This document shows positions 1,688 to 23,403 of a DNA stretch of 64,000 nt, in pieces. The DNA is taken from positions 131,959 to 195,958 of the forward strand of contig NZ_QNRR01000013.1 of the NCBI RefSeq assembly GCF_003315205.1, given 5' to 3'. The DNA is from Roseimicrobium gellanilyticum (GTDB lineage: Bacteria > Verrucomicrobiota > Verrucomicrobiia > Verrucomicrobiales > Verrucomicrobiaceae). Numbering within the stretch: the first letter of the stretch is position 1; every line of letters begins with the position of its first letter. The position numbers were made by a program, and so were the translations under genes. Under the pieces are notes generated by a model. It ran no database searches. It was not told where the DNA came from and was given only the letters and a program-made list of their open reading frames with translations.

Positions 1688-4600
1688 CTACGCTTCCACA
1701 ACCGGCAAGTTTTCGTCCTTGGATTCCGACGGAGGCATGATGGCATTCCACCACCGAAGAATCACCTGCCCCACGTCATTCAGCGCCATGTAGCACATGG
1801 GCACCAGGTAGAGGCAAATCACGGTGGCAAAGAGACTGCCATAACCCATGGCCACCGACACCGGCGTGAGGAACTGTGCGTGGGTGCTCTGCGCTCCCTG
1901 GCTGAAAAAGAAGGGCGCGACCTTCGCAATCCACGTGCCATCAAAGATCAAGGGTACCAGGCCGAAGAAGGTGGTGATTTGGGTGAGGAAGATGGCGCGG
2001 AATCGCGCAGCACCGCCTTCCCGCACCGCACTGAGGATGCCGTCCGTCTGCTTTCGGTGATTGATCTCATCCACCAGCACAAGGGTGTCATTCACAATCA
2101 CACCGGATACTGCCAGCATGCCGAGAATGCTCATCTGGCTCACAGGAAAGCCGTGAAAGAGATGCCCCAGTATTGCCCCCACCACCCCAAATGGGATCAC
2201 CACCAGCACCACAAAGGGAAGGAAGTAGCTCTTGAACGGGATCGCCGTGAGGCAATAGAGCCCAAAGAGCACAATGAAGAACATCACCACGCCCGCGGTG
2301 GCGCTCTCCCGCTCCGCGCGAGCCTCGCCTTCAAAGCTCCACTTCACCTGCGGATGCGAACGCATGAACTCCTCAAGATGATTGCCGATGTCTGTGCGCA
2401 GGGCCGCAAGGTCCACGGACTTCTTGTCCACATCCGCAGTGATGTTCAGCGCACGCTCGCGATTCACACGGCGGATGGCAGAAAAACCCTTGCCCACTTT
2501 CATTTCCGCCACGCGGTTGAAGGGTATCTCCAACCCATCCGTCGTGCGCACGCGCATGGTCTCCAGGGTGGAGAGGCTCCGGCGCTCATCACGCGGATAA
2601 CGCAGCATGACCTTCAGCTCATTACGCCCACGCTGGATGCGCTGCACTTCACTGCCATAAAAGGCCTGACGCACCTGACGTGCGAGGTCGCTCACAGTGA
2701 CGCCGAACTGCCGGGCCTCCGGCTTCAGGCGGAGCTGGATTTCATTCCGTCCGGTGTCGAGTGAGTCGTTGATATCAAACACACCGGGATACTTGGCCAG
2801 TTGATCTTTGATCTTGGAGGAGAGTTCCAACAACTCCGTGGGATTTGTGCCGGTGAGCTGGATATTGATGGGATCCCCTGCGCGGAAGATCTCCGAACGG
2901 AAGCTCACCTCCTCTGCTCCCACGATGGTGCCGATGCGCTTGCGCCACTCATTGGCCATGTCCACGGTATTCACCTTCATGGTGCGTTCCTCAGGGCCAT
3001 AGGTTTCGATATTCACCTCACCAATGTGCGCCTGCCCGCCGCTGCCTGAGCTGGAGGTGAGACGCGTGGTCCCGGTGGTGGCAATGATGTGCCGAATCAC
3101 TGGCGTGCCATCCGGCCCCACGTATTCCTTCCGCATCTGCTCAGCGATTTCATAGATGCGATTGATGTGCCCATCCGTCACCTCGAAGGGCGTACCCTCC
3201 AGCATGGTGAGGCGCGCCTCGATGCGCTCACTGGCGATGCGGGGAAACTGCACATACTGGATGCGCCCGCTGAAGAACATGCCGCACAGGATGGCGAGTC
3301 CACCGAAGCTGCACGCCAGCACCGTGTAGCGATGCTCCAGACAGAACCTCAGCGAGGGCCTGTAGACGCGATTCACGAACCCCTCGAGAGCCCGGTCCGC
3401 TCCGCGATGCAAGGGATCCAGCAGGTGCCCCACCTTCTCCAGTGGCCGGATGGGATGCGCGAGGTGCGCGGGGAGAATGATCTTCGTCTCCACCAGCGCG
3501 ATGAGCATCACCATGATGAACACGAGAGCAATGGGCACGAACATTTTACCCATGTCGCTGGCCTCAAAGACCATGGGGAGGAACGCCATCACCGTGGTGA
3601 GCACACCAAAGGTAATGGGCACCGCCATGCGCTTGGTGCCCTCGATCGCTGCCTGAAGAGGTGGCATGCCCTGCCTTCGCAAGGTGTCCACGTGCTCACT
3701 GATCACGATGGCATCATCCACCACAATGCCCAGCACGAGGATGAATCCGAATAGCGTGGAGATATTGATCGTGATGTCGAAATAAGGCATCAGCGCGAAG
3801 GCGCCAAGGAAGGAGACCGGCAGGCCCACGACAATCCAGAACACCGACTCCAATCGCAGGAAGAGGCCGATGCAAAGCAACACGAGGATGAGACTGCTCC
3901 GGGCATTGTCCAGAAGCAGGTCGATGCGCCCCTTCACAATCTTCGCGCGGTCATTCCAGAACTCGATGCTCACACCATCCGGCATGCGGTGGCGGGCCTC
4001 CTCGACGTACTTCTTCACATTCTCCGCGATGGTGATGGCGTTTTGGTTGCCCTCGCGCATCACATTCACCACCACACACCGTTTTCCGTTCAGGCGGGCA
4101 TAGAGGAGGTTCTCATTGAAGCCGTCCTCAATTTTGGCGATTTCGCCCAGTGTGAGCTTGGAGCCATCCGGCCGCGTGAGGACCACCACATTCGCGTAGT
4201 CGTCGCCGGTGTAAGCTCGCCCCTTGGTGCGGATGGAAACGTCTCCGGACTCCGTGCGCACGACACCCGCAGGGAGGTCGATGGCGGCATTGCGAATCGC
4301 GGAACTGATGGACTCCAGCGTGAGACCGTACTTCCGCAGCGTCTCCTCGGAGACTTCGATGGCGATCTCAAGAGGCCGTGAGCCAGCCAGTGACACGTAG
4401 GAAATGCCAGGCTGGGAGGCGAGCTCGTCCCGCACCTGCTCGCCGAGACGGCGCAGATCACGCTCGCTCATGTCCGCCGCGATCACGACGGTGATGACCG
4501 AGCGCCTTTCATCCTCCACCTGAATGACGGGCTTCTCCGCCTCTTCCGGAAACTCAGGGATGGCGTCTGTGCGAATTTTGATATCCTCCAGCACCTGTCG

Positions 4601-7245: not shown

Positions 7246-9594
7246 TCACTCCACCATCTCCACCTTCACCTCACAGGTGGAGCTGCGACCATGATCGTCC
7301 AGCACATGGAGCTTCCATGAGCCTGCCGTAGCTTTCCAGAGCAAGGATTCTGCGGGCGTGCTGCTGCCCAGGAACTTCGCTCCTGCAAACCAGAAGATGG
7401 TGCGCACACCGGCGGACGTCTCGGCTCGAAGTGGAATGACCTGCTTGCTGGAGTCATTCACCCGCAATGAATACGTCAGCCTCGGTTGTGGCGACACGAT
7501 GCGCGGGATGTCTTGTGACTGTGCGGCGCGCAGGGCCACGGTGCTCGCTTCCAACGGAGGTGCCTCACGACGCGGCACGCCTGCCAGTCGGAAGAGCGCC
7601 AGCATGTCGGGCGGCCAAAACTCATACACTTCGCGGCGCAGGTCGCGCTTACCGTCATCGGCGATGACGCGCAGGCCGGTGCCCTGGTCGATCAGCACTT
7701 CACGATGGATATCACACGGCGCGATGGGCGACTTCCCAGGAATGAACCAACCCATGCGGCAGTGCTGGCAGTGCGGTGTGGGGATTTGTCCGGATACAGC
7801 GCAGAGTTGCACTTCACGCACGCCCTCCGGTGGCACGTCGCGATGCCACGGAAGGCGCAGGCGATGGAAGATTTCGAAGAGCAGGGGTGCCGCGCATTTA
7901 CGCGCGATGAAGGAGGGATTGGATTTGCCGTTGAAGTTCCCGATCCACACCACGCACACATATTCACCGCGAATGCCTGCGGCCCAGGCATCGCGGAAGC
8001 CGTGGGAGGTGCCAGTCTTCCATGAGATGGTGGGGTCGCTGAGTCCGGCTTCCTCTTCACGTGAAGCGAGCATGCGGCGCACGAGGAAGCAGGCTTCGGG
8101 AATGAGGAGTGCGTTTCCGGAAGGGTGCGAAACAGGGGCCGCGTGAGAATAGCGCAACGCACGGGGAGTGCCATCCGTAGCCAGCATGGCGTACATGGAA
8201 GCCAGTTCTTCCATGCTCACCTCGGCGCCACCGAGGGGAAGCGAGAGGCCATAGTGGTCTGCGGGACGCGGCAGGGAGACGCCCGCCTGTTTCAGGAAAC
8301 CATAAAGGCCCGGCTCGGCCAGCTTTCGCGTGAGGGCGACCGCGGGAATGTTGCGACTTCGGAAGAGTGCATCCTCCGCGGAGATGGGACCGGTGAATTC
8401 GCGGTCGAAGTTCTCGGGGTTGTAGTCACCGAAAGCGACCTGGCCATCACGCAAGAGGCTGCGCGGGTGAAGGAGGCCCTGTTGCAGAGCGAGCGCATAG
8501 ATGAAGGGCTTCAATGCGGAGCCGGGTGAGCGGCGGGCGGTGATGCCATCGACTTGGCCTGAGATGTCCACATTCAGGAAACTGGCGGAGCCTGCATAGG
8601 CGAGCACCTCGCGAGTGGGAGCGTGCACGAGCAAGGCACAGGCGTTGGTCATACCGACCTCGCGACGCACGGAGAGATAGTCGCGAAGCGAGCTCTCGAT
8701 CTGCTTCTGCATGCCGAGATCGATGGTGGTGGAGAGAGGGGGATACTGGATGGTGCCGGGTGTCGTGGCGTCTGCCAACAAGCGGCGAGCGAGGTGTGGG
8801 GCCTCGCGGGGAGGCTTGGCTTCTGGCTGCAGGACGAAAGTGGCATCGAGTCCGTCTGCGCGCAGGCCATGAGCTTCCTGCCAACGCTGCCAGAGGCGGA
8901 ACTGGGCAGCGGCAAGGGCATCATTGCCTCCGGAGATTTTCGGTCGACGCCGCGTGGGGCTCTGGGGCAGCACGCTGAGGCTCACGGCTTCTCGTGGTGT
9001 GAGATCTTTTGCGGACTTCCCACACCAGAGCAGTGATGCTGCGCCGATGCCCTCCACGTTGCCTCCGTAGGGGGCGAGATTGAGATATGCCTCCAGGATT
9101 TCTTCTTTCGAATAGTGCCTCTCGAGTTGCAGTGCCCGCAGCATCTGGACGAATTTTCCTGAGAAGGATTTCGTGGAGAGGTCATAGCGAAGTCGCGCCA
9201 GTTGCATCGTCACGGTGGAGGCACCGCCACGTCGCGTACCCGTCACCACACCCCAGCAAGCACGGCCGAGCGACAGTGGATTGATTCCCGGGTGCGAATG
9301 GAAGTGCCGGTCTTCCAGGAGCAGTGTCGCCTCGATGAGATCCGGACTGATCTCCGCGAGTGGGGTGTGCAGACGGTAGCGGGCATCCCCAGCCAGCGTG
9401 AGATGGATTACCTTGCCGTCACGGTCGAGTAATGCGCGAGAGAAGGTGAGGCCGGGAGGGTAGAGAGCGGGTTTGGGGCAGAGGGCGTAGGCGAGGAGGC
9501 AGCCCAGCAATAATACCGCGAATCCGGCAGTCCCCTTCCGAACCCAGCGACGTTTCCAAACACTAGAACCCACTGCCCTCAGAACTCCCTTCAT
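7246..9594 (-). CDS. pbpC: Penicillin-binding protein 1C (transglycosylase + transpeptidase-like + PBP1C C-terminal domain).
   Basis: N-terminal TM anchor. The GT51 region and transpeptidase fold are recognisable. ~780 aa, typical PbpC length. ORF could extend to 9738; start chosen at MKGVLRA (ATG 9594). Confidence 0.85.
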   Translation of the reverse strand: MKGVLRAVGSSVWKRRWVRKGTAGFAVLLLGCLLAYALCPKPALYPPGLTFSRALLDRDGKVIHLTLAGDARYRLHTPLAEISPDLIEATLLLEDRHFHSHPGINPLSLGRACWGVVTGTRRGGASTVTMQLARLRYDLSTKSFSGKFVQMLRALQLERHYSKEEILEAYLNLAPYGGNVEGIGAASLLWCGKSAKDLTPREAVSLSVLPQSPTRRRPKISGGNDALAAAQFRLWQRWQEAHGLRADGLDATFVLQPEAKPPREAPHLARRLLADATTPGTIQYPPLSTTIDLGMQKQIESSLRDYLSVRREVGMTNACALLVHAPTREVLAYAGSASFLNVDISGQVDGITARRSPGSALKPFIYALALQQGLLHPRSLLRDGQVAFGDYNPENFDREFTGPISAEDALFRSRNIPAVALTRKLAEPGLYGFLKQAGVSLPRPADHYGLSLPLGGAEVSMEELASMYAMLATDGTPRALRYSHAAPVSHPSGNALLIPEACFLVRRMLASREEEAGLSDPTISWKTGTSHGFRDAWAAGIRGEYVCVVWIGNFNGKSNPSFIARKCAAPLLFEIFHRLRLPWHRDVPPEGVREVQLCAVSGQIPTPHCQHCRMGWFIPGKSPIAPCDIHREVLIDQGTGLRVIADDGKRDLRREVYEFWPPDMLALFRLAGVPRREAPPLEASTVALRAAQSQDIPRIVSPQPRLTYSLRVNDSSKQVIPLRAETSAGVRTIFWFAGAKFLGSSTPAESLLWKATAGSWKLHVLDDHGRSSTCEVKVEMVE

Positions 9595-9600
9595 CTTTGC

Positions 9601-9720
9601 CAGTGCCTTGGAACTCGCTGTCTGAAAGACAGCAGGAGCCCAGCCCAGGGTTAGGGAGCCTGAGCGACCGACACCCTGGGTATGCCAGGAACGGAATCGC
9701 GCTCTGAAAGAGCGCAGGAG
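9601..9720. repeat. Left ~120-bp inverted-repeat arm flanking the transposase. It contains two palindromic hairpins (CTGTCTGAAAGACAG; GCGCTCTGAAAGAGCGC).
   Basis: Reverse complement matches 10190-10315 almost base-for-base (e.g. GCGCTCTGAAAGAGCGCAGGAG vs CTCCTGCGCTCTTTCAGAGCGC). Confidence 0.8.
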
Positions 9721-9724
9721 ATGG

Positions 9725-10177
9725 TCAATCCCAGACATAACGTTCGTCGAATTCGACGTCGTGTTTCCTCAGGAAGGCGCGGAACTCGTCTTGAAAGGAG
9801 TGTTTTTGGTGGTGTTCGCGTTGATTGCGGATGTATTCGCTCACAGCATCCACGTTAGAGGAACTCACGGAGAAGGCTCCGTAACCGTGCTGCCAGTAAA
9901 AATCACGGAACTGGACGTGTTGTCCACGAAGCCAATTCGTGGAACCCTTCTTCAAGTCTCGCACCACATTGCTGATAGTCGCGGTCCGTGACAGGAGAAA
10001 CAACAAGTGCGCATGATCAGGCTCCGTGTTGATTTCCACGGATGAACAATCCGCCTCACGCAATACCCCACCCATGTAGTCGTGCAGCGCGGGACGGATT
10101 TCGTCCGGCAACACGCGCACGCGATCTTTCGTGGAGAAGATCAAGTGGAGGTAAACCTTGGCGAGGGACTGGGCCAT
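9725..10177 (-). CDS. tnpA: IS200/IS605-family Y1 (HUH) transposase, probably a REP-associated tyrosine transposase (RAYT).
   Basis: 150 aa. HUH motif DHAHLL. Catalytic-Tyr region FRDFYWQHGYGAFSV matches the IS200 TnpA 'W.RGY..S' signature. Local GC is clearly lower than the surroundings. Confidence 0.85.
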   Translation of the reverse strand: MAQSLAKVYLHLIFSTKDRVRVLPDEIRPALHDYMGGVLREADCSSVEINTEPDHAHLLFLLSRTATISNVVRDLKKGSTNWLRGQHVQFRDFYWQHGYGAFSVSSSNVDAVSEYIRNQREHHQKHSFQDEFRAFLRKHDVEFDERYVWD

Positions 10178-10189
10178 GACGGGGTATAC

Positions 10190-10315
10190 TACAACTCCTG
10201 CGCTCTTTCAGAGCGCCATGCTTTCCACCGCATACCCAGGGTGTCGGTCGCTTAGGCTCCCTAACCCTGGGCTAGGCTCCTGCTGTCTTTCAGACAGCGA
10301 GCTTCGGTAAGCTTG
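10190..10315. repeat. Right inverted-repeat arm of the transposase unit (reverse complement of 9601-9720).
   Basis: CTCCTGCGCTCTTTCAGAGCGC … CATACCCAGGGTGTCGGTCGCT … CTGCTGTCTTTCAGACAGCGAG mirror the left arm. Confidence 0.8.
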
Positions 10316-10422
10316 CGTGCCTATCATGAATACGCACGCTGAGCTCGAGTTCTCACTGCGAGGGAGACGAGTTCTCGGAAGGCACGAGATGAATGAATCG
10401 ACGCTCATTTGTACTTTCCAAA

Positions 10423-13400
10423 CTACTGCGCCGCCTCCACCACCAGCTTCCCTCCGAGGGCACGACCCTTGAAATTCTGGTCGTACATCGACTCGGCATA
10501 CACTGGCGGTATCACAAAAGTGCCGGCGGCGATGGGTTTGATGCGGTAGGTGAAGACCTGGACGTCGCCTTTGCGCACGTTGGTGAAGAAGACGTTTCGG
10601 TCTTCGCGGACCTCTACGAAATCGGCACCGGGCATGGTGTTGCGGCCGGGGCGCAGGGTGCCCTGCTCCACTTCGAAACTGCCGGGGAGCAGATCCAGCA
10701 GGGCCACGTTTGTCTGGTCTTCGGGACTGATGTTTCGGATTACCAGTTTCACGGTGGCGCTCTGACCGACCTTCAGCTTTTCAATCGGCTTGCCATCTTT
10801 ATCCATAAGCTCACGGAAGACTTCGAAGCCGTCTGTGATCTTGTCCTTGGCATCCCCCTTCTCGAACCCTGCTTCCACCACTTGGTAGAAGGCGCCGAGG
10901 TCTGAGTTGCCCTGATCCAGGTTGAACCGAATCGTGCCGGCATTGGCGCCAAAGGGCACATTCAAGATGCCCGCACTGGGTGGCACCAACAGCTTCGGCT
11001 CCACACCGGCGGCGCGGGCCACTTCGGTGATGCTCAGTTTCACATCGGACTTCTTCGCCAATGCGGTGTAGGCCTTGAGGGCCATGATGCTGGTGGCGCT
11101 GCTGATGGTATTGAAGCGATGCTTCGCGATTGGCTCCGTGATGACGGCGAGATCCTTGTAACCGAAATCACCCGCGATGTTCGGGAAATGGCGGCACATC
11201 AATGCAAAGGCCTGAGCATTGCGGACCTGCGGATCACTCCACCAGCCACCGAGCCAGCGTTCGAAGAACGGCTTGGGATCAGACTTGCGACGATACAGGT
11301 CCATGAGCGTGCGGCCTTCTTTCTCCTGCTTCAGCAACATGTAGGTGCTGGCAAGGTAGGCGGCGCTCAAGGTGCCCTCCCACTTGTCCTTGTACTCCTT
11401 CTCCAGCGTGTCACGGAGATTGAGCACCTGGTTCGTGGTGACTTCGCCGTTGCGCGTGAGCAGGTAGATCGCCGCCGCCTGGAAGTTCGCTTCTTCGAGG
11501 TTCGCTGTCTTGGCGCGGGCCATCTGCTTCATGCGATTGCGTGCGGCATCGAGGATGTCGCTCGGCACGGCATAGCCGGCATCGCGGGCTTCGGTGAGAA
11601 ACTCGGTGACGTACACACTCAGGAAGTCCGGTTTGGCATCGCAGAAGCCGTCCCAGTAGCCGAAGCCACCGTTGCCGTGCTGTCGCGTACGCAAGAGCAT
11701 GAAGGCAGCATCGAGTTGCTCGTTCGCCTCGGCCTTGTCGAAGCCGAAGTCGACTTCATCTGCGAGCAGCAGACGCGACATGGCGCGACTGGTGATCTGC
11801 TCCGAACAGCCGTAGGGATACTCGCGCAGGTAGGACTCCAGGCCGCGTGCCAGGCCGAGTGGCGCCGTGCTCACCGTGGCCGAGGTCTTTCGGAACTCGG
11901 GGAACATGTCACGGTTCACCGCGATGTCCTGCTTCCCAAGCCGGAAGTAACCGCTCTGCACATGCGTCATGTACGGCGTCGCGGGGCGCACGCTCAGTGT
12001 TGTGGATCGCTTCGCCTCTTCCCCACCGGCACTGGCGTGAAAGGTGAGCTCAGCGCCACCCAGTTCCCCCTTCACGCGCACCTTGAAGCGCGCCGTGGCT
12101 TCCTTACCAGGACCCACTTCCAGATTGCTCTCCAGCGGAGGCAGCACTACGAGATGCTCGGTGCCCTCAACCTTCAAGGCGATGGTTCCCGGTGCGGACG
12201 GACCTTCCAGGTTGTTCGCCACGGTGAGGCTTGCGGTGAATTCATCTCCCGGGGCGGCGAAGAAGGGCGCATTCGGCGTGAGCACGAACGGTCCTTTCAC
12301 CGTGGCCTGAGCCTGGGCGGTGCCCACGATGTCCTCCGACACGGCTACAGCCATGATCTTCAGGCTGCCAGCAAAGTAGTCGGGCACATCATAGGTCACT
12401 TCCTGGCGGTCCGGGCCGCACTCTACAAGGCCACTCCAGAAGACGACGGGCGCTTCCTTGCGACGCTTGAAGGGATTGAGGTGCATCTTCAGCGCCACGT
12501 CTTCACTACCGCCGAAGGCCTTCTGCTTCATGAGCTGGCTGAATTCCGGCAAGATGAGATCGAGGATCTGCTCGCTCTCCACTTCGAGCGCGCGCTTGCG
12601 CATGAAGTGCTTCAGTGGATCCGGCAGCTTGTAGTTAGTCACCTGGTGGATGCCTTCATCCACGGCATACACCACGATGCGTCCCGGTTTGGTCGTCTTG
12701 AAACCGATGGTCATGGTGGTGCCGGGCTTCACGCGCTGCGGTGCATCCAGTTCCACGAGCATGCGACGCTTGTTCTCATCCACAGCGAAAGGCTGCACGG
12801 CATAGCTCAAAGGACTGGTGAAGACCTCCGGTGAATCCAAGGCACGCACGAAGGAGACGTTCACGTAACCGGTGCCCTCCAGGCCTTCCGGCACCATGAT
12901 GCTGTGGGTTGCGCTGGGCGTGCCCTGCTTGATCCACTGCCAGCCGAGCACACGGTCACGCTCAATGGTTGCCAGACCAGCTCCCGTGAATGGCGCACGC
13001 AGGCTGAACTCCAGCGGCTGACCGCTCTGCAGGCTCGTACGCGCCAGCTTCATTTCCAGCTCGGCGTCACGTTCCAGGCTGCGCTCGGCGTCACCCTTGC
13101 CTACCACGGTAAAGGCGGTGGCGCACACCACGTTCCCTTCGCCATCGCGCAGCTCGAAGCGGTACTCACCCGCCTTGTTCGTCGGCAGGGTGAAGCTCGC
13201 ACCATCGGCGGCCAGCGGCAGAGCGCCTTCGCTGATGGACTGCTCCCGCTTCGTGGAGACGTAGGCGTAGTTGCCGTTCTCCTGCTTGGTGAGCACGGAC
13301 ACATGCTTGATGTGCAGGATGTGCTGCGTCAGGCCGGGCACGGCCAGCAGGCTCTGGTCCGGCCCCACTGCGATCATCTTCAGGCTGCGTGGTGTATCCA

Positions 13401-16400
13401 ATCCTATGTAGGAAAGGTCGCCATCTGCCTTCCAGCCGACCACATACGGCAGCGGCGCCACCAGGAAGGTCTGCGCGCCACGCACGCTGCGCCCCCCATC
13501 CGGCTCGAACCCTTCCGTGAAAAACTCCGCGCTGAAGACACCGTCGCTGAAGCGCTCCAGAGCCAGGTTGAAGACGGCGTTGCCATTGTCATCCGTGGTC
13601 TGCTCGCCGAGTTGCACCTCCGTGCCTGCAGCGGCGGATTCGTTGTCCTGCTCCTCCTCGTCTTCATCCTTCAAGCGATTGTGGAAGGTGAAGTCGGGAA
13701 ATTTCGGGAAGGAGAAGTTCGCGGGATCCAGCGTGAGCTTGGCCGTCACGCGACGCTTCGCGGCGGGCATGCCGAAGAGTGTCTGTAGATTGATGGTGGC
13801 CTTCACATCACCCGGCTGCACCCAGGCGAGTCCCGGAGGCGTGCTCAGGGTGACGCCCAGCTTCATGCGGTCCGGCTGGAAGTCCTCCACGCGGAAGCCT
13901 GTCCGGCTTAGCAGGATGCGATTCCCCTCATCGTCCGGGTTCGGCAGCAAGTAGAGTCGCGCGGTGTAGGTGCCAGTCGGCGACTCTTCTGCGGTCTCCA
14001 CTTCTGTATCAAAGAAACCGTCTTCACTGAGGGCTATCTGCTGGGTATCGAGCAGTTCCTCTTTCGAGTCACGCACCTCCAGTACGAGGGGCAACCCATC
14101 CAGCTGGCCAGCCCAGTCGCGGCGCTTGGCAATGCCGCCCACGTGTACCTTGTCACCCGGGCGATAGACGCCACGTTCGGTGAAGAGAAAGCCATCCAGC
14201 GCTTCCTTTTCTGAGGCGAGAACACCTTCGATATCGAAGCGCGAGAAATCCAGCAGACGATCCGGCCGATGGAAGGGCAAGAAGGCCACATCATTCCCCG
14301 AGCGGGCGATGACACACACGGGCAGCTTCTCACGACGGAAGTGCTCCACGTTCGGCACGCTGGCGTGACCCTGCGCATCCGTGGTAGTTTCATGCAGGAA
14401 CTCGCCATTCTTCGCCAGCGTGATGATCTTCACCTCCGCCGCGGGTTCACCCTTCATCAGGCTCTGCACGAAGATCTCACGCGAGGCATCCGCATTCCGC
14501 TTTTGCAGAATGCCAAGATCGGTCACGAGGATGAAGCGACTCGCCGCCACATTCTCACCCACGCGCACCCACTTGGCCTCGGCTTCCTCGGAGTCCGTGC
14601 CCACATCCTCGCCTTCTTCGTTCTGCTGCTCATCTTCGTTGCGCTCGCGCACGCCTTCCACGGTCAGGAAGAAGAGACCGCGCGAGGCATCCGGATCATT
14701 GGTGTCCTGGGAGTTCAGTGCGTTGGTGAAGTCAAAGGTGCTGTAGTTCGCCTGGTATTCATTCGGCATCACCACGTCGCGCACTTCGCGGTGCACGCGG
14801 GAGATGTTGTACTCATCGAAGTCCGTTTTCCAGTAGGGCGACTCGAAGTCACCACCCGTGAGCCGGGCGAGGTGATTGATCTGGCTGAAGGGCACGCGAG
14901 CGAGTGTGATGCGCAGGTGCTGCACACCACGGTATTTCAGGCTCAGCTTCTTTTCCCCGTTCAGGGCCAGCACGCCACCGGCACCCTGGATTTCCACTTC
15001 CTTGGGAAGCTCCGGCACATCATCCAGAGCGAGGTGTTCCTTGCCCAGGCGGAAGCCGCCGAGGGCCTGCACACCATTGGTGATGCGTACAAAGAGACGC
15101 CCCACTCCGGGCGGCTGCATCTTGAAGGCGTGCATCGCGGCCATGGGAGCGTCTTCATCCTTCTCTGCCTCCACGCGCTTCAGCGGGATGGGCTTCGAGG
15201 CGCTGATGACCGCCGGGGTGATCTCACCCGTGTTCGGCCAGTCATAGTCTTCCACCGCAGGACCCGCCGGGCTGGCGGCTTTGTCCTTGGGCAAGAGCCA
15301 GACGGAGACATGTTTCTCCAGTTCTTCCCCTGTGACATAGCCGGTCGTTTCCAGGAAGAGGAACTGCTCGGGCTCACCCTCTTCCGTGCGCACGATGTCG
15401 GTGCGTACTTCCTTGATGAAGAAACCGGTGGTCACGTCGGGCACACGCACCTTCGTGGTGACACCCGTTTCGGTCACTGCTCCGCCTTGGGTATTGGCGA
15501 GCCCTTTCGTGAGGGTCACGTTCACAAAGTCTTCCTTCTCCGGAACCGCAATGCGCGTCGTGCGCACATAGTACTCCCGCTGATGCGCCCCTTCCGTCAC
15601 GGTGAAGAAGGTATCGGGGGTCTTGCCCCCGTAGTTGAAGATGGGCGTCTTCCCCAGCACGTCGAGAGTGATGTGTTTCTCCACCTCATCCTTCGTCACC
15701 GGGTGGCTGAAGTTCAGGTTCACCGTGATCTGGTGCACCGAAGGGTCCTTCGGGTCCGTGTAAAACTCACTGCTCGTCACCTTGGCCACGAGCGGCGGGG
15801 TGGTGAATTTCCACTGTGCCTCCTTGAGCTTTGTGGCAGGAGGCAGGGTTTCCTTGTCAAAGGACACAGTGTACTCGTTAGCAGCGGGCCAGTAGTCCTG
15901 CGAAGTCTGGAAGACGAGTTTCTTGTCCGTCACCCATTTCCACTCGCCGGGCATGGCAGGCTTCATGGTCACGCCCTTGGTGGCGGCTTTGCCCACGGAT
16001 TCCAGAGGGGCGATGGAGCTGGAGAAGTCCAGCACCACGGGCTGCACGACCGGTTTGTTCTTCACGATGGGCGTGACGCCCGGAGCCACGAGCTTGCTGG
16101 TGATTTCCCGAATCTCCACCAGTGGCGTGGGTCGCGATTTGTATTTCTCCACCCAATGGTACCACCCGTATCCACCCGCGATCGTCACACCCGTCGCTAC
16201 AATGATCGATGCCCAAACGCCGGGGCCCCGGCGCATGCTATCAAGGACACTTCCGCTGGTGGACACGAGCCACCCGGGAGGCTGGTACTTGAAATCTCCA
16301 AAGACCGCGCGGGAAAGCCGTCCCCAGTTGCGCGGCATCAACAAAGCCAGATGTCGGAACATATAAAGTCTTCCGAGTGGATGTAGTACTGCATCCGGCA

Positions 16401-16410
16401 GTGACAGCAA
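10423..16410 (-). CDS. yfhM: Bacterial alpha-2-macroglobulin (YfhM/ECAM-like, MG-domain protein), ~1995 aa, with a CSEQ thioester-type motif.
   Basis: Enormous beta-rich protein. PYGCSEQITS is the canonical thioester-site context (CxEQ). N-terminal TM segment VWASIIVATGVTIAGGYGWYHWV. Same strand as pbpC, the known conserved A2M partner. Alternative start ATG at 16236. Confidence 0.85.
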   Translation of the reverse strand: MLSLPDAVLHPLGRLYMFRHLALLMPRNWGRLSRAVFGDFKYQPPGWLVSTSGSVLDSMRRGPGVWASIIVATGVTIAGGYGWYHWVEKYKSRPTPLVEIREITSKLVAPGVTPIVKNKPVVQPVVLDFSSSIAPLESVGKAATKGVTMKPAMPGEWKWVTDKKLVFQTSQDYWPAANEYTVSFDKETLPPATKLKEAQWKFTTPPLVAKVTSSEFYTDPKDPSVHQITVNLNFSHPVTKDEVEKHITLDVLGKTPIFNYGGKTPDTFFTVTEGAHQREYYVRTTRIAVPEKEDFVNVTLTKGLANTQGGAVTETGVTTKVRVPDVTTGFFIKEVRTDIVRTEEGEPEQFLFLETTGYVTGEELEKHVSVWLLPKDKAASPAGPAVEDYDWPNTGEITPAVISASKPIPLKRVEAEKDEDAPMAAMHAFKMQPPGVGRLFVRITNGVQALGGFRLGKEHLALDDVPELPKEVEIQGAGGVLALNGEKKLSLKYRGVQHLRITLARVPFSQINHLARLTGGDFESPYWKTDFDEYNISRVHREVRDVVMPNEYQANYSTFDFTNALNSQDTNDPDASRGLFFLTVEGVRERNEDEQQNEEGEDVGTDSEEAEAKWVRVGENVAASRFILVTDLGILQKRNADASREIFVQSLMKGEPAAEVKIITLAKNGEFLHETTTDAQGHASVPNVEHFRREKLPVCVIARSGNDVAFLPFHRPDRLLDFSRFDIEGVLASEKEALDGFLFTERGVYRPGDKVHVGGIAKRRDWAGQLDGLPLVLEVRDSKEELLDTQQIALSEDGFFDTEVETAEESPTGTYTARLYLLPNPDDEGNRILLSRTGFRVEDFQPDRMKLGVTLSTPPGLAWVQPGDVKATINLQTLFGMPAAKRRVTAKLTLDPANFSFPKFPDFTFHNRLKDEDEEEQDNESAAAGTEVQLGEQTTDDNGNAVFNLALERFSDGVFSAEFFTEGFEPDGGRSVRGAQTFLVAPLPYVVGWKADGDLSYIGLDTPRSLKMIAVGPDQSLLAVPGLTQHILHIKHVSVLTKQENGNYAYVSTKREQSISEGALPLAADGASFTLPTNKAGEYRFELRDGEGNVVCATAFTVVGKGDAERSLERDAELEMKLARTSLQSGQPLEFSLRAPFTGAGLATIERDRVLGWQWIKQGTPSATHSIMVPEGLEGTGYVNVSFVRALDSPEVFTSPLSYAVQPFAVDENKRRMLVELDAPQRVKPGTTMTIGFKTTKPGRIVVYAVDEGIHQVTNYKLPDPLKHFMRKRALEVESEQILDLILPEFSQLMKQKAFGGSEDVALKMHLNPFKRRKEAPVVFWSGLVECGPDRQEVTYDVPDYFAGSLKIMAVAVSEDIVGTAQAQATVKGPFVLTPNAPFFAAPGDEFTASLTVANNLEGPSAPGTIALKVEGTEHLVVLPPLESNLEVGPGKEATARFKVRVKGELGGAELTFHASAGGEEAKRSTTLSVRPATPYMTHVQSGYFRLGKQDIAVNRDMFPEFRKTSATVSTAPLGLARGLESYLREYPYGCSEQITSRAMSRLLLADEVDFGFDKAEANEQLDAAFMLLRTRQHGNGGFGYWDGFCDAKPDFLSVYVTEFLTEARDAGYAVPSDILDAARNRMKQMARAKTANLEEANFQAAAIYLLTRNGEVTTNQVLNLRDTLEKEYKDKWEGTLSAAYLASTYMLLKQEKEGRTLMDLYRRKSDPKPFFERWLGGWWSDPQVRNAQAFALMCRHFPNIAGDFGYKDLAVITEPIAKHRFNTISSATSIMALKAYTALAKKSDVKLSITEVARAAGVEPKLLVPPSAGILNVPFGANAGTIRFNLDQGNSDLGAFYQVVEAGFEKGDAKDKITDGFEVFRELMDKDGKPIEKLKVGQSATVKLVIRNISPEDQTNVALLDLLPGSFEVEQGTLRPGRNTMPGADFVEVREDRNVFFTNVRKGDVQVFTYRIKPIAAGTFVIPPVYAESMYDQNFKGRALGGKLVVEAAQ

Positions 16411-22824: not shown

Positions 22825-23403
22825 ATGAAATGTGACATGTGTGACAACGAAGCCACCGTCTTCCTGACCCAGATCGTGGATGGGAAGATGACCAAGGCAA
22901 ATCTCTGCGAGAAATGCTCGAAGGAGAAGGGTGTCACCGATCCTGCGGGCTTCCAGCTCGCGGACTTCCTGCTGGGCACTGGTCAGCAGAAGAAGAGTCG
23001 CGCTGCCGCCGTGGAAGATGATACCCTGGCCTGCCCGGCCTGTGGCTTCACCCGTGCCCACCTCAAGAAGATTGGCCGCATGGGCTGCCCCGAGTGCTAC
23101 CACACCTTTGCCGACGATCTGGAAAACATGCTGCGCGCCATGCACAAGGGCACCCGGCACGTGGGCAAGGTGCCAGGCAAGCAGCCCGCCTTCTCCTCAT
23201 CTGCGCCGGCGAGGGAGGAAATCGGCAGACCAGCCCCCGTGGCCACGGCACCACCGCCTCCTGCACCCAAGCCTGTGAGCCCCAAGAAACGCATGGCCGA
23301 CCTCAAGGCTCAAATCGAGCGGGCAGTCGCGGAAGAACGCTTCGAGGATGCTGCCAAGCTGCGGGATGAAATCCGGGCTCTGGAGAGCGAAACCCAGGCC
23401 TGA
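22825..23403 (+). CDS. UVR-domain protein with two N-terminal CxxC zinc ribbons (McsA/YacH-like).
   Basis: CDMC…CEKC and CPAC…CPEC zinc-finger pairs. C-terminal UvrB/UvrC-type motif ERFEDAAKLRDEIRALE. A Pro/Ala-rich linker between them. Confidence 0.6.
   Translation: MKCDMCDNEATVFLTQIVDGKMTKANLCEKCSKEKGVTDPAGFQLADFLLGTGQQKKSRAAAVEDDTLACPACGFTRAHLKKIGRMGCPECYHTFADDLENMLRAMHKGTRHVGKVPGKQPAFSSSAPAREEIGRPAPVATAPPPPAPKPVSPKKRMADLKAQIERAVAEERFEDAAKLRDEIRALESETQA

Follow-up and report, generated by a model that had tools for sequence, protein, structure and literature searches.

The junction between the alpha-2-macroglobulin (A2M) gene and pbpC in the Roseimicrobium gellanilyticum window (the whole stretch of 64,000 nucleotides that was analysed) contains a REPtron-like unit with a probably domesticated transposase, an enzyme that is not a classical RAYT. 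The reading that we hold to be the probable one is that the gene of a class-1 Y1/HUH endonuclease/ligase occupies the dyad centre between two structured modules arranged as an inverted doublet, and that the unit was inserted a single time and then domesticated. As regards its wider meaning, we see about even chances that an ancient, separately domesticated 'subclass 1.2' lineage has a cognate three-hairpin ssDNA module of about 105 nt, present as inverted doublets in at least three phyla, with the gene always at the dyad centre.

The transposase-fold gene (9725..10177, (-) strand; IS200-like, ssDNA type) is an ORF encoding 150 amino acids. The protein matched the Pfam family PF01797 (Y1_Tnp) with an E value of 5.7e-26 and 91.5 bits (cut-off 23), and the NCBIfam family NF033573, IS200/IS605 transposase, with 65.5 bits (cut-off 55). 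In its structure model (pLDDT 82) a helix is predicted at residues 106-117, and a Foldseek search of the PDB with this model retrieved the IS608 and ISDra2 TnpA proteins (E about 1e-8, TM about 0.6-0.7). The protein has the TnpA fold and is a member of the Y1/HUH transposase family, as the initial annotation had proposed of the family, and the HUH motif that it had located in DHAHLL corresponds to H55-A-H57. The catalytic tyrosine had been placed in the segment GYGAFSV, which is wrong. When the protein was aligned to ISDra2 and IS608 TnpA, Y115 (in SEYIRNQ, the beginning of YIRNQREHH) fell on the QYIENQ segment of ISDra2, and this is the candidate catalytic residue. Among 28 homologues, H55, H57, Y115, Q119 and H123 were invariant or nearly so (the two HUH histidines and Y115 without exception), the C-terminal tail ...FDERYVWD was invariant, and the HUH motif was DHAH in nearly all of them, as it is here. 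The E. coli TnpA-REP protein (4ER8) was not matched by sequence, even at E<=10, and ranked only 30th by fold against the model. The motifs WQ (95-96) and YIRNQREHH (115-123) match the Y---Q--HH pattern of class-1 subclass 1.2, an assignment made by comparison with the signature motifs in Table 1 of PMC6006769. An exact-sequence look-up gave no identical record. The family is conserved to an unusual degree, with 63-75% identity between genera, and no tnpB accompanies the Y1 gene unit.

Two modules in opposite orientation flank this gene. The upstream one (the right arm in gene sense; 10191..10305, (-) strand) was scored by the covariance model R1 at 103.2 bits (E 4e-25), and the downstream one (the left arm; 9610..9724, (+) strand), inverted with respect to the former, at 101.9 bits (E 9e-25). 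The inverted repeat that they form extends over 110 nt (9614-9723 and 10192-10301, with 468 nt between), with 90% complementarity and 89% column identity. The module, of about 105 nt, reads H1, AGGAG, central CCCAGGG/CCCTGGG hairpin, H3, AGGAG. H1 is CTGTCT-GAA-AGACAG plus the 3' tag CAGGAG (9618..9638, (+) strand; mirror copy at 10277-10297), its hairpin CTGTCTgaaAGACAG occupying 9618-9632 and 10283-10297 ahead of the tag. The central hairpin, CCCAGGG[...]CCCTGGG, has a variable inner part (9644..9680, (+) strand; mirror copy at 10235-10271). H3, GCGCTCT-GAA-AGAGCGC followed by AGGAG (9699..9720, (+) strand; mirror copy at 10195-10216), has its hairpin GCGCTCTgaaAGAGCGC at 9699-9715 and 10200-10216, followed by the tag CAGGAG, and is the hairpin closest to the gene on either side. 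On the minus strand the upstream module therefore runs H1, central hairpin, H3, then 17 nt and the ATG, and the H3 tag of the downstream module starts 4 nt past the stop codon.

The 24-nt hairpin-plus-tag pattern was found four times in the window and the 41-nt central segment twice, against 0.00 expected from shuffles in both cases. As single-stranded DNA the arms fold better than shuffled sequences (z -2.9 to -5.5). Searches of the 64-kb window with the hairpin pattern, the central segment and the covariance model gave no further copy of the module. One weak covariance-model hit obtained over the whole window with filters off (22936-23049, 18.8 bits) was rejected, being internal to an ORF and devoid of the hairpins. 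The AGGAG tag was also considered as the Shine-Dalgarno sequence of the Y1 gene, and this was rejected because its distance to the ATG is 17-30 nt and because it stands after each hairpin, even where no gene is near. No GT[AG]G/GTAG tag is present at the hairpin feet, the tag being 3' (C)AGGAG, which is 5' CTCCT(G) on the other strand. These results refine the first description of the arms. Their mutual reverse complementarity holds, their length is about 105-110 nt instead of about 120 bp, and the two hairpins reported in each arm exist, together with a third, central one. The lower GC content ascribed to the whole unit applies to the ORF (0.536), but not to the arms (0.60-0.62; window mean 0.605). 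Of the REPtron/RAYT type that had been assigned, the inverted hairpin arms, as opposed to the asymmetric ends of IS200, are sustained; the RAYT part fails, with neither Y---NP nor the GT[AG]G tag present.

The unit lies, as first described, between an A2M-family gene (10423..16410, (-) strand), whose stop codon is 121 nt ahead of the upstream arm, and pbpC (PBP1C; 7246..9594, (-) strand). The former was identified from its ORF, the final 2 kb of which are 85.8% identical in DNA to the matching end of a gene with A2M Pfam domains in a related genome (L001), and the latter from its ORF and homologues with PF00912, PF00905 and PF06832. All three genes are co-directional. That the insertion uncoupled pbpC from the A2M promoter, as the initial annotation suggested, may or may not be the case; within the unit, no terminator-like site was found on the strand of these genes. 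The likely ATG of pbpC, at 9594, is 19 nt beyond the downstream arm, and the gene call in L001 also begins past the arm; the longest pbpC ORF (start 9738), which crosses the arm, is probably spurious. Annotation should not extend pbpC through the arm, nor should the Y1 gene be labelled as an active IS. In a related 6.4-Mb genome (L045) with the synteny ADH-A2M-pbpC-RPE, the A2M and pbpC genes are 4 nt apart, and neither module nor Y1 gene is present at the junction. This shows that the unit is an insertion into the A2M-pbpC pair, in agreement with the initial annotation.

An observation that the initial annotation had named as speaking against its own reading, the presence of the same intervening sequence in related genomes with no sign of mobility, was made here: two close, Roseimicrobium-like relatives (L001 and L002) carry it at the same A2M-pbpC site. 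The unit is accordingly old and fixed, not recent. In the Y1 gene of the window, L001 and L002, first and second codon positions share 93-96% identity and third positions only 63-65%, so that synonymous sites are near saturation among the three genomes that share the occupied site; an insertion common to relatives with such divergent third positions must be old. The non-coding arms are 92-98% identical in the same comparison (85-89% where L002 has a 9-nt insert). These alignments show purifying selection on both the Y1 protein and the hairpins, and the operon-like A2M-pbpC pair has long harboured an 830-nt foreign unit.

An autonomous, still-mobile IS200/IS605 insertion sequence that recently jumped into the junction is thus very unlikely. 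Such an element would agree with the NCBIfam call, with IS608 and ISDra2 TnpA as the nearest solved structures, with the insertion relative to L045, and with the position of the homologues, which occupy differing contexts in differing genera, one unit (L042) being located within a duplicated gene fragment. It is difficult to reconcile with a site filled in three genomes at near-saturated synonymous divergence, with identities of 63-75% between genera, and with inverted ends in place of same-strand LE/RE hairpins and the lack of tnpB. Copy number is against it as well: the Y1 gene occurs once in the 64-kb window, and the chromosome of Roseimicrobium sp. ORNL1 (CP049143.1; 7.96 Mb) encodes the protein at one place, in a single exact copy. 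The clade is also virtually absent from plasmids. A collection of 72,556 plasmids yielded only two full-length protein relatives, both on replicons larger than 600 kb, and the DNA of the whole unit matched nothing in the same collection.

The structure of the module was analysed statistically in 39 modules. Paired cells amounted to 91%, compared with 77% in shuffles; 16 pairs varied on both sides, and the covariation score of 0.283 exceeded those of shuffles (0.077; 0 of 500 reached the observed value) and of slid controls (0.03-0.05). The H1 stem occurred as 17 different stems, and its 195 cells included 189 Watson-Crick, two G-T and one A-C combinations. Since H1 is almost purely Watson-Crick, the hairpins fit selection on both strands, that is, on DNA. 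The outer stem of the central hairpin is nearly invariant in sequence between phyla. H3 has compensatory variants in relatives (GCACTCT/AGAGTGC and GCGCCCT/AGGGCGC), and its invariance in the sample is partly an effect of ascertainment because the H3/H1 pattern was used for the genome scan.

These figures bear on whether the arms could instead act as RNA, either as structured 5'/3' UTRs or as sRNAs like Acido-Lenti-1 that control the transposase gene or its neighbours. The Prosthecobacter half-module does match RF01687 (Acido-Lenti-1): loci L007, L008, L015 and L032 score 43 bits, with a gathering score of 37. That motif is an orphan, entered in Rfam as a probable sRNA with no transposase link (Weinberg et al. 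2010, PMC2864571). The arms of the window lie, moreover, within a co-directional A2M-gene-pbpC transcription unit. On the other hand, so few non-Watson-Crick cells are atypical of selection on RNA only, and modules occur in either orientation with respect to the gene and to neighbour genes, and also as inverted doublets. Neither a promoter-like nor a terminator-like site was found on the gene strand within the unit, and no Rfam family, RF01687 included, was matched by the arms of the window at E<=1 or E<=10. We therefore give an RNA role only a slight probability.

The association between gene and module extends well beyond Roseimicrobium. A module in (+) orientation just 5' of the ATG and another in (-) orientation 0-6 nt past the stop codon were found in the window, L001, L002, L033, L034/35, L040, L041 and Persicobacter L052. 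The layout is alike in L042/43, where the second module is 43 nt past the stop codon, and in L016 and L036-38 a module doublet lies beside the gene. The linked loci span Verrucomicrobiota, Acidobacteriota and Bacteroidota. Without exception, the roughly 12 independent loci show this linkage, with protein identities down to 47%, and the position of the gene relative to H3 is constant across them. No outer TIRs surround the gene-flanking units, and no direct repeats surround the gene-bearing units except in L042/L043.

Inverted doublets without the gene were also found, in MAGs of Prosthecobacter, Verrucomicrobiaceae, Acidobacteriota and Bacteroidota and in Persicobacter. At least five copies with 88-94% identity are present in Prosthecobacter F1F2.bin.412, at least three with 98% identity in H5_VER2, and the replicons of Persicobacter sp. 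JZB09 have them at 9, 4 and 1 places. A further gene-less doublet, L046, has a central hairpin of the Roseimicrobium type; it was reached with a six-frame translation of the arm as query, which gave only three proteins, all leading to this doublet. The scan of the genome collection with the H3/H1 pattern retrieved 30 loci, none of them from Roseimicrobium, whose own gene loci were not among them either. The sole hit of a metagenome scan with the Roseimicrobium-type H1 (L039) was a chance match; the contig is unrelated and low in GC, and neither module nor gene is present there. Dispersal is established in other genera only. For Roseimicrobium a dispersed population is unproven, and there may be none, because the 64-kb window has no extra module and the sole extra module of ORNL1 adjoins the Y1 gene.

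An alternative is that a DDE transposase mobilises the doublets in trans as ordinary MITEs, and that the Y1 gene landed in one of them, or was captured by it, without any catalytic tie to the hairpins. In the Prosthecobacter and Verrucomicrobiaceae MAGs, dispersed doublets lie inside elements of 325-370 nt with terminal inverted repeats (TIRs) GGTTCATCCGG..., and 8-bp direct duplications (TSDs) flank these elements, perfectly in L008, L022 and L009 and in 7 of 8 positions in L031. Other elements form a second set, distinguished by the TIRs TAGACCGGTTCTCA... and by flanking TA. TIRs with 8-bp TSDs are a hallmark of DDE-type transposition, HUH/Y1 transposition of the IS200/IS605 kind leaves no target duplication, and we know of no TIRs or TSDs in REPINs. 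The case for TSDs consists of the 8-mers that exactly adjoin the TIR ends in these four copies; the longest common substrings of doublet flanks were distributed overall like those of mismatched controls. A MITE origin does not account for the linkage in all of the roughly 12 independent loci from three phyla, with a fixed gene position relative to H3, nor for gene-flanking units that have no outer TIRs, nor for the strong constraint on arms where no dispersed copies were seen. In addition, two different TIR chassis enclose the same inner modules, which suggests that the modules, and not the TIRs, are the conserved entity. On balance this origin is unlikely.

Under the favoured reading, a REPtron-like unit built around a class-1 enzyme, the unit would have been inserted once between A2M and pbpC in the ancestor of this Roseimicrobium group, and since then it would have been held in place as a single copy by purifying selection on protein and hairpins. 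A dimeric enzyme may recognise the CTGAAAG-looped hairpins and the conserved tag when these are extruded from single-stranded DNA, and it would cut and rejoin beside the hairpins. In other lineages the enzyme may maintain or spread gene-less doublets in trans, as proposed for RAYTs and REPINs. If the broader proposal of a cognate module is true, Acido-Lenti-1 would be half of a DNA element and not an RNA gene, and an orphan Rfam motif would be re-assigned. The enzyme-repeat partnership of the RAYT/REPIN type would either have originated two or more times or predate the split of class 1 and class 2, and the RAYT/REPIN idea, in which a domesticated transposase coexists with a repeat population of its own, would hold for another enzyme class as well as for Verrucomicrobiota, Acidobacteriota and Bacteroidota. 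Subclass 1.2 enzymes, which are poorly understood, would gain a candidate substrate whose hairpins, loops and tags are defined and can be synthesised.

Several known systems resemble the unit in part. Acido-Lenti-1 (RF01687) has two hairpins: the first, CCYAG...CURGG, is followed by GCU and a linker, and the second is short, with a loop of the UUC type. The motif equals the central-plus-H1 half of the module on the complementary strand, and it is multi-copy in Lentisphaerae and Acidobacteria. The Rfam model, however, is without H3, and the central hairpin of the window arms, unmatched at E<=10, has an extra inner segment. The IS200/IS605 elements IS608 and ISDra2, nearest to the protein among solved structures and its best matches by sequence, share with the unit the catalytic set of HUH plus Tyr helix, the Y---Q motif (YIRNQ here) and hairpins adjoining the gene ends. 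Their ends are asymmetric, with hairpins on the same strand, whereas here there is a 110-nt inverted repeat with modules on opposite strands, and their many identical copies, frequent plasmid carriage and common association with tnpB were not seen here. In TIRtrons (Di Nocera et al. 2013, PMC3733652) a tyrosine-transposase gene also lies between long inverted repeats. Certain of these repeats are 'double palindromic', and certain of them make up families of moderate abundance, in Acidobacteria for instance (PMC3733652). TIRYTs correspond to subclasses 2.1, 2.2 and 2.5 (Quentin et al., PMC6006769); unlike the protein studied here they are longer and have HTH tails, and their TIRs contain a GGGGWSAS motif that the arms lack.

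The REPtron or RAYT-REPIN system (Nunvar 2010; Bertels & Rainey 2011; Ton-Hoang 2012, PMC3333891) shares with the unit a single-copy Y1 gene between inverted hairpin repeats, gene-less inverted doublets dispersed in the genome (here in relatives), and vertical inheritance of a gene kept by selection. It differs in that RAYTs are class 2 enzymes with Y---NP and not Y---Q, 4ER8 being unmatched by sequence; in that the GT[AG]G tag is replaced here by a 3' AGGAG tag (5' CTCCT on the other strand); in that a REP has 20-40 nt and the three-hairpin composite 105 nt; and, with respect to REPINs, in that some dispersed module copies carry TIRs and 8-bp TSDs. The closest counterpart of the enzyme is TnpAY1 subclass 1.2, listed as 'REP: no' with Cyanobacteria and Bacteroidetes as taxa (Quentin et al. 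2018, PMC6006769), with which it shares WQ, Y---Q--HH (here YIRNQREHH), a length of about 148-150 aa, a conserved C-terminal tail of about 30 aa, a low copy number, no IS-like behaviour and a near-absence from plasmids. A 'RAYT-like IS200 Group 3' has also been described (2017, PMC5581495); it lacks both duplicates and copies on plasmids, and 16-mers from its flanks are abundant. In contrast to published subclass 1.2, the hosts here include Verrucomicrobiota and Acidobacteriota, the HUH motif is DHAH instead of DH[IV]H, a minor variant, and structured repeat modules always surround the gene. Repeat modules are thus tied here to a branch of these enzymes that was published as repeat-less.

The ORF called on the minus strand at 9725-10177 of the window encodes a 150-amino acid protein with a Y1/HUH transposase fold. 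It is bracketed by an inverted repeat whose arms (9614-9723 and 10192-10301, 468 nt apart) are 90% complementary, with 89% column identity in their alignment. This bears out the initial annotation of a 150-aa ORF between long, near-complementary hairpin arms, although these measure 110 nt each and not ~120 bp. Both hairpins then described, CTGTCTgaaAGACAG and GCGCTCTgaaAGAGCGC, are present in each arm, each followed by CAGGAG, at a spacing of 82 nt and in direct orientation, but a third hairpin (CCCAGGG...CCCTGGG) occupies the centre of both arms. The motifs were confined to the arms across the 64-kb window (chance expectation 0.00), and a covariance-model scan of the window with filters off retrieved the two arms only (103 and 102 bits); an extra 18.8-bit match was rejected, since it lies within an ORF and contains none of the hairpins. 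The lower GC content attributed to the whole unit holds for the ORF (0.536), but not for the arms (0.60-0.62; window mean 0.605). The longest pbpC ORF (minus strand) begins at 9738 and, within 9595-9738, traverses the entire left arm, and in the Prosthecobacter locus L033 (5873-5919) a purE-like gene call stops at a TAA in the central-hairpin loop; these neighbouring ORFs running into modules are likely annotation artefacts.

The protein matched Pfam Y1_Tnp (E = 5.7e-26), in agreement with its earlier assignment, and also the NCBIfam IS200/IS605 transposase profile. The TnpA proteins of ISDra2 and IS608 were the nearest solved structures by sequence, and the AlphaFold model (pLDDT 82) matched them with E values of about 1e-8. 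E. coli TnpA-REP (4ER8) ranked 30th by structure comparison (E = 7e-4) and was absent from the sequence-search matches even at E<=10. The HUH motif is H55-A-H57. The catalytic tyrosine had been placed in GYGAFSV, which is the wrong residue; the residue aligned to the catalytic segment of ISDra2 is Y115 (SEYIRNQREHH). Residues H55, H57, W95, Q96, Y115, H123 and the last residues (...DERxVW) were invariant in 28 homologues, with Q119, H122 and several further tail positions conserved in at least 90%. The motifs WQ and Y---Q--HH, the length of about 150 aa and the conserved ~30-aa tail also make up the signature of TnpAY1 'subclass 1.2' (Quentin et al. 2018, PMC6006769, Table 1), an IS200-related group without IS properties that is entered as 'REP: no' (PMC6006769). 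Probably the same group is 'RAYT-like IS200 Group 3', described as having no duplicates, none on plasmids and abundant flanking 16-mers (Bertels et al. 2017, PMC5581495).

The clade is large: over 4,200 database clusters matched at E<=1e-10, of which the top 120 are 63-93% identical, and 222 clusters (50% identity level) matched at E<=1e-30. Plasmids almost lack it, with only two full-length relatives among 72,556 plasmid records; the replicons that carry them belong to Bacteroidota and exceed 600 kb. About twenty cluster representatives (P0241, P0243-P0245, P0249-P0253 and others) are ~290 aa long and matched the 150-aa query twice; they would be two Y1 domains fused in tandem in one chain, which is notable because this enzyme family works as a dimer. 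One Verrucomicrobia MAG contig (L026) encodes, 2 kb from its subclass-1.2-type gene, a further and divergent Y1_Tnp homologue of 35% identity (1991-2419, minus strand).

The closest protein (93%) is that of Roseimicrobium sp. ORNL1, and the Y1 gene occupies the same A2M/pbpC position in ORNL1 (L001) and in one metagenome contig (L002). Among the three genomes the gene is 93-96% identical at codon positions 1 and 2 and only 63-65% at position 3. The non-coding arms share 92-98% identity, falling to 85-89% where L002 has a 9-nt insert; the intergenic DNA beyond them is not alignable. Conservation of the arms and of codon positions 1 and 2, against divergence of position 3 and the outer DNA, shows that both the protein and the hairpins are under purifying selection. 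The insertion is fixed and older than the split of the three genomes. The complete genome L045 is more distant (pbpC 69% identical). It keeps the ADH-A2M-pbpC-RPE synteny, but A2M and pbpC are only 4 nt apart, and neither module nor Y1 gene is present at the junction. The two genes were thus once contiguous and the unit inserted between them, as had been proposed. The profile matches would suit an active IS200/IS605 element, but we regard this as improbable; the ORNL1 protein is encoded at a single place in the 7.96-Mb chromosome.

A2M, the Y1 gene and pbpC all lie on one strand, and no terminator-like site was found on the gene strand within the unit. A pbpC gene 81% identical to that of the window (L044, 3390-5765) has no A2M gene in the 3.4 kb upstream, up to the contig end, so the pairing is not universal even in close relatives. 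ORNL1 carries a third module, in (-) orientation (L001, 9543-9657), in the A2M-gene spacer; a further 208 nt separate it from the upstream arm, on the upstream side. Compared with the other two modules, its central hairpin has changed in pairs (GGGAGCC...GACCGAC to GCGAGCC...GAGCGCC). The 9-nt insertion in the downstream arm of L002 (778-901) lies at the central-hairpin tip and creates a perfect 7-bp stem (GTCCCGC CCT GCGGGAC).

Scanning one genome per species with a hairpin-plus-tag pattern yielded 30 loci, chiefly from Verrucomicrobiaceae and Prosthecobacter MAGs, with some from Acidobacteriota and Bacteroidota MAGs and none from Roseimicrobium; the metagenome scan gave nothing beyond a chance match. 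With nhmmer and the covariance model, about 60 distinct units of ~105 nt were collected. All are built in the same order: an H1 hairpin with a variable stem and a CTGAAAG-type loop, then AGGA, xxCCAGCCCAGGG, a stem-loop that varies, CCCTGGG, a spacer, the H3 hairpin (GCGCTCTGAAAGAGCGC) and AGGAG. H3 hardly varies, which is in part an ascertainment effect, the search pattern having been aimed at it. In 39 modules, 91% of cells paired (77% in shuffles), 16 pairs had changed on both sides, and the covariation score was 0.283, against 0.077 in shuffles (0/500) and 0.03-0.05 in slid controls. These modules contain 17 distinct H1 stems, with only two G-T and one A-C among 195 H1 cells, which fits DNA hairpins pairing on both strands rather than an RNA-only structure. 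A function of the arms at the RNA level is accordingly given little weight, although the complementary strand of the Prosthecobacter central-plus-H1 half-module (L007, L008, L015, L032) matched Rfam RF01687, Acido-Lenti-1, with 43 bits (gathering score 37). Described in 2010 as a probable sRNA of unknown function, that motif numbered 89 copies across Lentisphaerae and Acidobacteria and was 'sometimes near group II introns' (PMC2864571). The window arms, whose central hairpin has an additional inner segment, did not match the RF01687 model. A weak, sub-threshold match to RF03015, 'Transposase-2 RNA' (21 bits; gathering score 42.7), was seen in one module (L008, 4126-4190, minus strand).

The linkage of Y1 gene and module is general. 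In the window, L001, L002, L033, L034/35, L040, L041 and Persicobacter L052 (Bacteroidota; protein 47% identical), the (+) module stops a few to ~30 nt 5' of the ATG and the (-) module begins 0-6 nt past the stop (43 nt in L042/43, where the layout is otherwise the same). An inverted doublet thus encloses the gene, which occupies its dyad centre and has an H3 hairpin nearest to it on either side. The doublet lies upstream of the gene in L016 and immediately downstream in the Acidobacteriota loci L036-38. Modules away from the gene are nearly always paired as inverted doublets, again with H3 next to H3 on the inside, and single MAGs have them at several loci. Prosthecobacter F1F2.bin.412, the MAG with the L033 gene, has at least five copies (88-94% identity), and H5_VER2 at least three (98%). 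In Persicobacter sp. JZB09 four doublets lie within 10 kb of the gene, and blastn gave 9 + 4 + 1 places in its replicons. A gene-less doublet found in metagenome contigs (L046), with batB on one side and batD on the other, has a central hairpin ~90% identical to that of the window arms. Directly 3' of the gene-plus-arms unit in L040 there are four tandem half-modules (H1 and central hairpin; 10605-10966; period 101 nt). In L042 (9718-9883 and 10637-10802; L043, 1112-1277 and 2031-2196) the first 55 codons of an ABC-ATPase gene are present as direct repeats on either side of the unit (166 nt, 91% identical). The left-hand repeat stops exactly at the module boundary and the right-hand one starts the intact gene, which suggests that the unit entered the gene in an insertion which a long duplication of the target accompanied or rescued.

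Doublets also sit inside longer TIR-bearing elements of two repeat families. Family 1 (325-370 nt; ends GG(T/A)TCATCCGGGAAGT...CCGGATGAACC) was found in L008 (3890-4215), L022, L032, L009 (3332-3704), L017 (1576-1940) and L031 (7119-7491), and the entire element folds as ssDNA into one long hairpin (z -10.8). Its hosts are Prosthecobacter and Verrucomicrobiaceae MAGs, with TIRs GG(T/A)TCATCCGG... Family 2 has ends TAGACCGGTTCTCA... and TA at the flanks. Direct duplications of 8 bp abut the family 1 ends exactly in L008 (CGAGATTC), L022 (AGACTTGG) and L009 (GGAAAAGC), with 7/8 matched in L031 and none at L017a. A general flank-repeat statistic did not differ from controls, and therefore the case for target duplication rests on exact adjacency in four copies. 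IS200/IS605-type transposition is not known to make target duplications, so at least some doublet spread may be due to a DDE transposase acting in trans. That doublets are simply MITEs mobilised in this way, with the Y1 gene as a passenger, we consider unlikely; no outer repeats of this kind surround the gene-bearing units.

On balance we favour a REPtron-like arrangement in which a domesticated Y1 enzyme has its own cognate ssDNA module of three hairpins. The data establish the insertion and its fixation, the selection, the module structure and the gene-module linkage. If IS608/ISDra2 and TnpA-REP serve as analogues, the enzyme would react with the hairpins and contribute to doublet dispersal. 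The REPtron type named in the initial annotation thus stands as to layout, and the likeness is one of mode of working; two features that define RAYTs, the Y---NP motif and GTAG-tagged REPs, are missing here. The signature matched is that of TnpAY1 subclass 1.2, a group without any previously reported link to repeats.
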